From: Escherichia coli
Lineage (GTDB): Bacteria; Pseudomonadota; Gammaproteobacteria; Enterobacterales; Enterobacteriaceae
Assembly (NCBI RefSeq): GCF_003334355.1
Contig: NZ_QOWP01000070.1
Direction: 5' to 3' (one strand)
DNA length: 3,518 nucleotides
Position 1 is the first letter of the stretch. Every line of letters begins with the position of its first letter. The translations under genes were made by a program, and so were the position numbers. Shown in pieces: positions 2,640 through 3,518 of this stretch. The notes under the pieces were generated by a model, which saw nothing but the letters and a program-made list of their open reading frames with translations, was not told the origin of the DNA and ran no database searches.

Positions 2640-3308
2640 ATGCGTACCACATCATTTGCGAAAGTTGCAGCTTTATGCGGCTTATTGGCTCTGTCTGGTT
2701 GTGCCTCTAAAATCACCCAGCCAGATAAATATTCTGGTTTTTTAAACAATTACTCTGATTTAAAAGAAACAACCTCGGCTACAGGTAAACCTGTTTTACG
2801 TTGGGTAGACCCGAGTTTTGATCAAAGCAAATATGACAGCATCGTCTGGAACCCAATCACTTATTATCCGGTACCGAAACCGTCGACCCAGGTAGGGCAG
2901 AAAGTTCTGGATAAAATTTTGAACTATACCAACACCGAAATGAAAGAAGCGATAGCGCAGCGTAAACCACTGGTTACCACCGCTGGGCCGCGTAGTCTGA
3001 TTTTCCGTGGGGCCATTACCGGTGTAGATACCAGCAAAGAAGGGCTGCAATTCTATGAAGTGGTTCCTGTTGCATTAGTGGTTGCGGGGACGCAAATGGC
3101 TACAGGCCACCGTACCATGGATACTCGCCTCTATTTTGAAGGTGAGCTGATTGATGCAGCGACTAATAAACCGGTTATCAAAGTCGTTCGTCAGGGCGAA
3201 GGTAAAGACCTGAATAACGAAAGTACGCCAATGGCTTTCGAAAATATTAAACAAGTTATTGATGACATGGCGACCGATGCCACCATGTTTGACGTTAACA
3301 AAAAGTAG
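2640..3308 (+). CDS. ydcL: Lipoprotein YdcL (DUF3313-type, function unknown); probable outer-membrane lipoprotein
   Basis: 222-aa ORF. The N-terminus MRTTSFAKVAALCGLLALSGCAS is a signal peptide with lipobox L-S-G-C (2691-2702); Ala at +2 predicts Lol sorting to the outer membrane. Good SD, TAG stop at 3306-3308. Confidence 0.9.
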   Translation: MRTTSFAKVAALCGLLALSGCASKITQPDKYSGFLNNYSDLKETTSATGKPVLRWVDPSFDQSKYDSIVWNPITYYPVPKPSTQVGQKVLDKILNYTNTEMKEAIAQRKPLVTTAGPRSLIFRGAITGVDTSKEGLQFYEVVPVALVVAGTQMATGHRTMDTRLYFEGELIDAATNKPVIKVVRQGEGKDLNNESTPMAFENIKQVIDDMATDATMFDVNKK

Positions 3309-3316
3309 TTCCAGAC

Positions 3317-3341
3317 GCGCCATCGTTAGATGGCGCTTTTT
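3317..3341 (+). terminator. Rho-independent terminator downstream of ydcL
   Basis: Perfect 8-bp stem GCGCCATC (3317-3324) with GATGGCGC (3329-3336), 4-nt loop GTTA, then TTTTT (3337-3341). It starts 9 nt after the ydcL stop. Confidence 0.6.
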
Positions 3342-3518
3342 ATCCGGTGCGCCGTAAAACCCCATCCTTCAGGGCGGGGATATAAGGCGCGGTTTTCCAC
3401 CTGACCAGGTGTTTGCTGTTGTTCAATGTATTGGCGGATGACGGATATTGGCGCACCTCCGCAGCTACTGGCAAAATAGCCAGGACTCCACAAAACGCCT
3501 TTGTAGTAATACCTGACT
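3326..3518 (-). CDS. tnpA: IS200/IS605-family transposase TnpA (Y1 HUH tyrosine transposase), C-terminal fragment; gene continues beyond the 3' edge of the window
   Basis: Minus-strand frame open from the window edge to TAA (complement of 3326-3328). It translates to VRYYYKGVLWSPGYFASSCGGAPISVIRQYIEQQQTPGQVENRALYPRPEGWGFTAHRIKSAI*. The stretch LWSPGYFASSCGGAPISVIRQYIEQQQ matches the conserved C-terminal helix of IS200/IS605 TnpA that carries the catalytic tyrosine, as I recall it from IS608 TnpA (not an aligned comparison). The ORF track omits it because no start codon lies within the window. Confidence 0.6.
   Translation of the reverse strand, partial: VRYYYKGVLWSPGYFASSCGGAPISVIRQYIEQQQTPGQVENRALYPRPEGWGFTAHRIKSAI
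3344..3518 (-). mobile_element. End of an IS200/IS605-family insertion sequence (IS609-like), partial; exact junction with the chromosome uncertain, roughly 3309-3349
   Basis: Contains the TnpA C-terminus and an adjacent imperfect palindrome. A TTTAT pentanucleotide sits at 3339-3343; this family inserts 3' of short AT-rich target motifs. An IS609 copy downstream of ydcL is known in E. coli K-12. Confidence 0.4.
3349..3390. repeat. Imperfect palindrome: 19-nt arms (3349-3367 and 3372-3390) with a 4-nt loop; candidate subterminal hairpin of the IS200/IS605-family element
   Basis: Pairing the arms gives 14 Watson-Crick pairs plus one G-T, with mismatches spread through the stem. IS200/IS605 ends carry imperfect subterminal hairpins of this kind, recognised by TnpA. 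It overlaps the last codons of tnpA. Confidence 0.4.

Follow-up and report, generated by a model that had tools for sequence, protein, structure and literature searches.

The ydcL Locus and the Boundary of the Element

The window, by which we mean the whole stretch of 3,518 nucleotides of Escherichia coli DNA analysed here, carries ydcK on the minus strand, then tehA, tehB, and ydcL (plus strand, 2640–3308), a terminator, and finally the 3′ part of a tnpA-like gene on the minus strand. It is 99.1% identical to K-12. Over its last 319 nt it matches strain 504239 and many other E. coli chromosomes at 100% identity; in these the neighbouring annotation consists of ydcL, an IS200/IS605 tnpA pseudogene, and insQ/tnpB. 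The features downstream of ydcL are the following.

3317–3343, plus strand: flanking chromosomal DNA, the intrinsic terminator of ydcL, with the stem GCGCCATC/GATGGCGC at 3317–3336 and the T-tract TTTTTAT; the same in the empty-site strain
3339–3343, plus strand: target and predicted left cleavage site (CL), TTTAT, with the core TTAT at 3340–3343; insertion, and the expected cut, at T3343/C3344
3344–3518, plus strand: first 175 nt of IS609 (1748 bp, running past the end of the window), placed by the empty-site alignment and the MG1655 feature; the plus strand of the window is the "top" strand
3349–3353, plus strand: 5′ arm of the outer helix, GCGCC, IS +6 to +10, pairing with 3386–3390
3356–3359, plus strand: left guide (GL), AAAA, IS +13 to +16, directly 5′ of the hairpin foot
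3360–3379, plus strand: inner imperfect palindrome (IPL), CCCCATCC-TTCA-GGGCGGGG, 8 bp, with a T-G at 3365/3374 and a derived A-C at 3364/3375
3380–3385, plus strand: ATATAA, the 3′ side of the internal loop facing the guide
3386–3390, plus strand: 3′ arm of the outer helix, GGCGC, IS +43 to +47
3398–3411, plus strand: second small hairpin, CACCTgaccAGGTG, IS +55 to +68, over the native tnpA stop
3401–3518, minus strand: 3′ part of the tnpA pseudogene (yncK in K-12), with CAG at 3401–3403 where intact relatives have a stop

A sequence-only reading of this DNA had placed the tip of an IS200/IS605 element near 3344, next to an imperfect palindrome, and had proposed a comparison with a genome lacking the insertion. 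Such an empty site was found in strain 4/0, where ydcL is directly followed by ydcO. Two segments of the occupied locus (L001) align with it, 1501–4144 with 1–2644 and 5893–8319 with 2645–5071, and between them lies a clean insertion of 1748 bp (L001 4145–5892) whose first base is window position 3344. The junction is therefore exactly 3343/3344, and the palindrome is not chromosomal sequence. No target was duplicated, TTTAT/TATCGG of the empty site becoming TTTAT/IS/TATCGG in the occupied one. The feature "insertion sequence:IS609" of MG1655 (1503161–1504908, 1748 bp) begins 36 nt past the ydcL stop codon, that is, at the same base. This copy at ydcL is present in about 3267 of 5426 complete genomes.

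Further copies lie between gltX and yfeD (O157) and in yajI, and they share sequence with the ydcL copy from TTTAT to the same right terminus, ...GGATGTCAA. The match to the empty site stops at 3343, while the other IS copies match from 3339 on. Positions 3317–3343 lie outside the IS and supply its target; the TTTAT that had been seen adjoining the palindrome is this flanking target, found at three chromosomal sites (ydcL, gltX, and yajI), and its TTAT core is also found at Providencia, plasmid, and metagenomic sites. For the annotation of the window this means that IS609 starts at 3344 and that TTTAT at 3339–3343 is flank, not element.

The TTTAT target forms the end of an intrinsic-terminator T-tract at ydcL (window 3317–3343) and again at gltX (3480–3505 of that locus, L003), and elements that target TTAT may often land in such tails. 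The insertion also splits the stop codon of ydcO, the convergent gene. At the empty site this stop is a TAA straddling the insertion point; with IS609 in place, YdcO gains one Tyr and ends at a TGA, for which the right end provides its terminal TCA (L001 5889–5894).

Two octamers, TTATCCGG (3340–3347) and ATAAGGCG (3382–3389), had been remarked on as recalling REP elements, with the reservation that this might be coincidence. Both are present, and both occur in REP consensus sequences. The palindrome could on this basis be a REP or REP-derived element recognised by a host RAYT transposase; RAYTs are related to TnpA, and the TnpA of a Providencia relative weakly matches NF047646 (25 bits against a cut-off of 80). 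However, TTATCCGG spans the junction, TTAT belonging to the flank and CCGG to the IS, and is absent from the empty site. No match to a REP consensus was found within three mismatches, and ATAAGGCG belongs to a left end conserved as far as Mariprofundaceae and Desulfobacteraceae. The empty-site comparison refutes the REP reading, to which we give practically no credence, and the likeness is a coincidence, as suspected.

IS609 and Its Two Ends

IS609 is a known and already annotated insertion sequence of E. coli, and the palindrome is its left-end DNA hairpin. The copy studied here is the same element as the IS609 of K-12 (MG1655; yncK/tnpA pseudogene and insQ), with the same locus, boundary, and length of 1748 bp, the same left end (LE) including an A at +21, and the same internal tnpA stop; the window comes from another strain, and otherwise nothing substantive differs. 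IS609 is oriented on the plus strand at 1.50 Mb of MG1655. Given the positions of oriC and ter, its top strand presumably lies on the lagging-strand template, the placement that the family would predict. Rfam gave no match in the window or in the full locus. The literature on IS609 that we found consists of mobile-element inventories, with no experiment on IS609 TnpA or on its ends.

The two ends of the element, CCGGTG... and ...GATGTCAA, are not inverted repeats. The right end carries the hairpin CCACGTCC-TTCA-GGGCGTGG followed by AGGATGTCAA, with TCAA 10 nt from the hairpin foot. This hairpin is of the same type and on the same strand as the one at 3360–3379 (CCCC(G/A)TCC-TTCA-GGGCGGGG), and its stem covaries among relatives (CCACGTCC/GGGCGTGG, CCTCGCCC/GGGCGGGG, and CCTCCGCC/GGCGGGGG). 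The right-end guide facing TCAA is GGAT in chromosomal IS609 and GAAT in plasmid relatives. InsQ, encoded outside the window (L001 4641–5849) by a gene that ends 43 nt before the end of the IS, scored 380.7 bits against NF040570 (cut-off 100).

The element thus has the properties of the IS200/IS605 family, of IS605 type: a Y1 HUH TnpA, tnpB near the right end, precise and duplication-free insertion 3′ of a fixed motif, similar subterminal palindromes on the same strand at both ends, and a guide matching the cleavage site. We are highly confident that 3344–3398 is the left end of IS609 (IS200/IS605; divergent tnpA and tnpB/insQ) and that the element entered the T-tract of the ydcL terminator on the 3′ side of TTTAT; its mechanism is predicted to be of the IS608 type.

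Pairing, Folding, and Chance Expectation of the Palindrome

The arms 3349–3367 (GCGCCGTAAAACCCCATCC) and 3372–3390 (GGGCGGGGATATAAGGCGC) enclose the loop TTCA at 3368–3371. Direct reading confirmed the 14 Watson–Crick pairs and one T-G (3365/3374) that had been claimed for them, with mismatches at four positions (3364 A-C, 3359 A-A, 3357 A-A, and 3354 G-A), and an independent palindrome scan returned the same match (start 3349, loop 4, 14 Watson–Crick pairs). The imperfection had been read as typical of subterminal IS200/IS605 ends; this was correct, and the central mismatches include the conserved guide AAAA. When the single strand was folded, as had also been proposed, z was only −1.0 to −1.6.

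Palindromes of equal quality (at least 14 of 19 Watson–Crick pairs, loop 3–8) arose 0.37 times per dinucleotide shuffle of the window, and 20% of the shuffles had at least one. The palindrome in this copy by itself is therefore not beyond chance, and its significance comes from the comparative evidence, namely the empty site, the other copies, the right end, and covariation. A repeat search with a 6-nt seed missed it and reported the ydcL terminator stem at 3317–3336 alone. Another imperfect palindrome of equal quality lies at 2498–2543 in the tehB–ydcL intergenic region (14 of 19 pairs, 8-nt loop, TTAGCCCCTTTTTCGG.../...CTGAAAAGGGGCTAA); the terminator scan made no call there.

Within the palindrome, the inner 8-bp hairpin is the sole part that is repeated at the right end, and by analogy it would be the part bound by TnpA. 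Pairing at +22/+31, where this copy has a T-G, is not maintained across 67 metagenomic left ends. Because the related left ends were gathered with patterns that fix the inner 3′ arm, any covariation of the left inner stem is invisible in them. The facing strand ATATAA is invariant in 12 aligned left ends with an AAAA or ATAT guide, and a left end with an AAAG guide has ATAC. Its first AT probably corresponds, by its position, to A+42/T+43 of IS608, which form base triples.

Related Left Ends

More than 1500 plasmid records matched the left end, mostly over just its first about 55–65 nt, joined to tnpB-only derivatives (Klebsiella, Salmonella, and E. coli). The retention of these about 55–65 nt marks the stretch as the cis-acting end. 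The tnpB-only derivatives (L007, L010, L011, L013, and L135–L137), found on more than 1200 plasmid records and chiefly on IncF plasmids of Klebsiella, keep no more than about 55–60 nt of the IS609-type left end, together with the right end. A Providencia plasmid carries a 78%-identical element with an intact tnpA.

Scans of genomes and metagenomes for the hairpin core revealed left ends in Acinetobacter, Mariprofundaceae, Thiotrichales, Desulfobacteraceae, Poribacteria, haloarchaea, a Woesearchaeota MAG, and many metagenomes. The pattern used for genomes specified 15 bases, and the 120 stretches that it returned were mostly chance matches, from which about 20 real relatives were sorted by context and by TnpB tblastn. 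By tblastn, tnpB lies directly downstream of eight of the genome-scan left ends (Acinetobacter, Thiotrichales, Desulfobacteraceae, and haloarchaea). A covariance-model search mixed opposite-strand and right-end matches with left ends, and its alignment was excluded from the counts given below.

The haloarchaeal (L076, L078, L079, L084, and L089) and Woesearchaeota (L105) ends have a nearly identical 20-nt hairpin core and an AAAA or AAAG guide upstream of tnpB. Their TnpB proteins are about 24% identical to InsQ; the end is far more conserved than its cargo, partly through ascertainment by the search pattern.

Correlation of the Guide with the Flanking Target

In IS608 of Helicobacter pylori, each hairpin foot has a four-base guide directly on its 5′ side, GL (AAAG) at the left end and GR (GAAT) at the right; the cleavage sites are CL (TTAC), 5′ of the left hairpin, and CR (TCAA), 10 nt 3′ of the right hairpin. 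The pairs A+16:T−3 and A+17:T−4 form there, with triples to A+42/T+43. A survey of 39 TnpB elements gave TTAT (left) and TCAA (right) as the commonest cleavage motifs. Considering these precedents, the AAAA guide of IS609 is expected to pair with the TTAT target.

We found that guide and flank were strongly associated across 110 distinct left ends (Fisher 1.3e-14, for sequences that are related and sites that are distinct). The AAAA guide (88 of 110) was accompanied by TTAT in 78 ends, by TTAC in 1, and by neither at the expected distance in 9, while the AAAG guide (22 of 110) was accompanied by TTAT in 1, by TTAC in 14, and by neither at the expected distance in 7. The flank lay mostly 12 nt upstream of the guide; about 16 of the 110 left ends had no TTAT or TTAC at the expected distance. 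Sequence comparison alone thus confirms the DNA-guide rule of IS608 (AAAG to TTAC, AAAA to TTAT) in about 100 natural left ends, drawn from genomic, plasmid, and metagenomic sequence. Experiments have demonstrated this code for IS608 and for ISGst2, whose TAM is TTTAT.

Two cases depart from the usual arrangement. In a Klebsiella pneumoniae plasmid (L011 2006–2057), three mismatches of the 5′ arm have all been changed to complement the 3′ arm, giving a near-perfect stem of 16 bp; the guide is ATAT instead of AAAA, the flank is TTTAC, and the guide rule is broken. This end may be a product of hairpin-templated repair or a dead end. A metagenomic group (L159, L217, L219, L228, L230, and L248) has AAAG and the same hairpin, followed by ATA(T/C)ACGGGGTTTAC and with TTAC 3′ of the hairpin, that is, a right-end-like layout with a left-end-type motif.

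By analogy with IS608, the following steps may be proposed. When the top strand becomes single-stranded, the inner hairpin at 3360–3379 would be bound by the Y1/HUH TnpA. AAAA at 3356–3359 would then pair with the flanking TTAT at 3340–3343, aided by the AT just 3′ of the hairpin, and this pairing would bring the phosphodiester between T3343 and C3344 to the active site. At the right end, the cut would fall after TCAA, which lies 10 nt 3′ of the corresponding hairpin, and the element would leave as a single-stranded circle and reinsert 3′ of another TTAT without duplication. The outer helix (3349–3353/3386–3390), which closes the internal loop bearing the guide, probably pre-organises or stabilises the fold of the left end.

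IS609 resembles IS608 in having subterminal hairpins on one strand at both ends with the guide 5′ of the foot, in the same GL/CL code (AAAG/TTAC in IS608 and AAAA/TTAT in IS609), in the AT dinucleotide 3′ of the left hairpin, and in a second small LE hairpin (at +46 to +60 in IS608 and, in a comparable position, at +55 to +68 in IS609). It differs in the hairpin sequence, in the distance from foot to cleavage site (19 nt quoted for IS608 and 16 nt in IS609), and in its inverted tnpA, which gives the divergent arrangement of IS605 type.

ISGst2 of Geobacillus stearothermophilus has a TTTAT target/TAM next to its LE, and its TnpB uses the same motif; its excision requires pairing of the TAM with the cognate LE DNA guide, and a combined swap of guide and TAM rescues excision (Meers et al. 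2023). As far as the published description allows the two to be likened, IS609 has the same TTTAT motif in a different host and a different sequence. Going by ISGst2, the TAM of the neighbouring TnpB (InsQ) is expected to be the same TTAT/TTTAT.

Covariation of the Outer Helix

The outer five pairs of the palindrome are absent from the right end, yet they covary. Among 13 left ends from genomes and plasmids, 4 of the 5 pairs were changed on both sides, and the covariation score was reached by 0 of 500 shuffles. The mismatches G11-A42, A14-A39, and A16-A37 were conserved in the same 13 ends, which fits a guide that must remain available. The 67 metagenomic left ends, which were chosen on the core only, gave the same picture: 90% of the cells were paired, 4 of the 5 pairs had changes on both sides, and 51 cells were changed on both sides where 12.5 were expected. 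Their covariation score was 0.181 against 0.056, again reached by 0 of 500 shuffles, and controls with a slid register scored far lower. These results rest on pair counting in a fixed register. A flexible-register helix search against shuffled flanks, in place of which the counting was used, had low power per sequence, and its combined p of 1e-5 came mainly from one Arsenophonus end.

On an Arsenophonus plasmid (L012 1990–2051), a left end stands alone, with neither tnpA nor tnpB in its vicinity. Its outer helix extends to 14 bp and takes in the TTAT target itself, with a fold of −19.7 kcal/mol (z −6.7).

We tentatively suggest, as a possibility to which we would not yet give even odds, that left ends of the IS609 type share a three-part fold, in which an outer 5-bp helix, free in sequence but kept paired, closes an invariant loop (G-TAAAA/ATAT-AA) carrying the guide on the TnpA hairpin. 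The outer helix might act as a functional clamp, setting the linker and the cleavage site in position, or as a gate, concealing the guide before TnpA is bound. Full formation of this helix and of the A-T pairs in the internal loop would sequester the guide; thus the fold of the free DNA and the active fold must differ. The haloarchaeal and Woesearchaeota left ends also have a helix adjoining the same hairpin, and the three-part fold may on this account be ancient.

In IS609 relatives, the covarying outer helix joins the linker (+6 to +10) with +43 to +47. To our knowledge, the published IS608 model does not include a three-part left-end fold with an outer helix. Of all the details, only the covarying outer helix had no description that we could find, the rest of the element being already known. 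The helix is a small addition to the left-end model and could matter for the engineering of targeted single-strand insertion.

The stem could also serve transcription. In IS200 (Salmonella and E. coli), a member of the same family with a subterminal LE palindrome within the first ~50 nt, nt 12–34 form a bidirectional terminator that protects against impinging transcription. Instead of or in addition to its role in transposition, the composite hairpin of IS609 might thus be a terminator or insulator at the IS edge, stopping transcription from ydcL. The RNA of the plus strand folds at −22.7 kcal/mol here, −28.1 in the O157 copy, and −26.6 in Providencia (z −4.6), and after the stem come GGUUUUCC here and a G and seven U in Providencia. 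However, the terminator scan made no call in the window or in Providencia, the U-run is just 4 nt here (UUUU after GG), and it is missing in many relatives that keep the helix (e.g., Mariprofundaceae, Desulfobacteraceae, and Acinetobacter). Moreover, the terminator of ydcL already lies 8 nt upstream. A terminator for tnpA is excluded, no T-run following on the minus strand. IS200 itself differs in that its palindrome is nearly perfect and a proven bidirectional terminator, with tnpA reading away from it. We regard terminator activity as unlikely.

The tnpA Reading Frame and the State of This Copy

The sequence-only reading had held that the palindrome overlaps tnpA codons, so that the same bases would serve as protein and as hairpin. 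An open frame does cross the palindrome, running on through the left end to a TAA at 3326–3328 in the flank; it is not native coding sequence, since intact relatives stop earlier and CAG here replaces TAG. The intact Providencia protein (WP_224051249; 83% identical; 148.5 bits against NF033573, cut-off 55) ends in ...YIEQQETPG with a TAG stop at IS +58 to +60, and in a Desulfobacteraceae relative tnpA likewise stops just before the palindrome. The last residues of the NCBIfam model are YIEQQ, and the ORF fragment in the window matches the final 31 positions of NF033573 (28.8 bits, E 1.2e-6; a fragment, below the whole-protein cut-off). All E. coli IS609 copies examined have CAG at the position of the stop codon. 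The hairpin thus lies within tnpA codons because the native stop was lost in E. coli IS609 (TAG to CAG, 3401–3403), and the tnpA frame beyond 3401 is read-through. The K-12 annotation also ends the pseudogene at 3401.

These findings bear on a further alternative, that the palindrome arose by chance, or is conserved merely through coding of the TnpA C-terminal tail. An equally good palindrome does occur in 20% of shuffled windows, and an open reading frame does cross it; however, tnpA of the intact relatives, like the NCBIfam model, ends before the palindrome, the palindrome is kept in tnpB-only elements that have no tnpA, and compensatory changes that keep the pairing are not a product of coding constraint. 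The covariation and the tnpA-less derivatives refute this alternative, which we consider extremely improbable, and the palindrome is best read as the DNA end of IS609.

The read-through tail of TnpA (3326–3403, minus strand) includes residues encoded by the flank, which differ at each site. The CAG state is common to three insertion sites; thus either TnpA remained active in its extended form or the copies were mobilised in trans.

In this copy, tnpA also has an internal stop at the equivalent of 3545–3547, just outside the window, in common with K-12; the O157 copy lacks an internal stop. Position 3364 is A here and in K-12, in place of the G (+21) of other copies, including those at gltX and yajI. 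The left hairpin folds at −13.7 kcal/mol with A against −17.3 with G, a cost of about 3.6 kcal/mol. In mutation-accumulation lines of K-12, none of 758 new insertions was of IS609. With its tnpA a pseudogene, its hairpin weakened, and no transposition seen in K-12, this IS609 copy is a fossil and now inactive.
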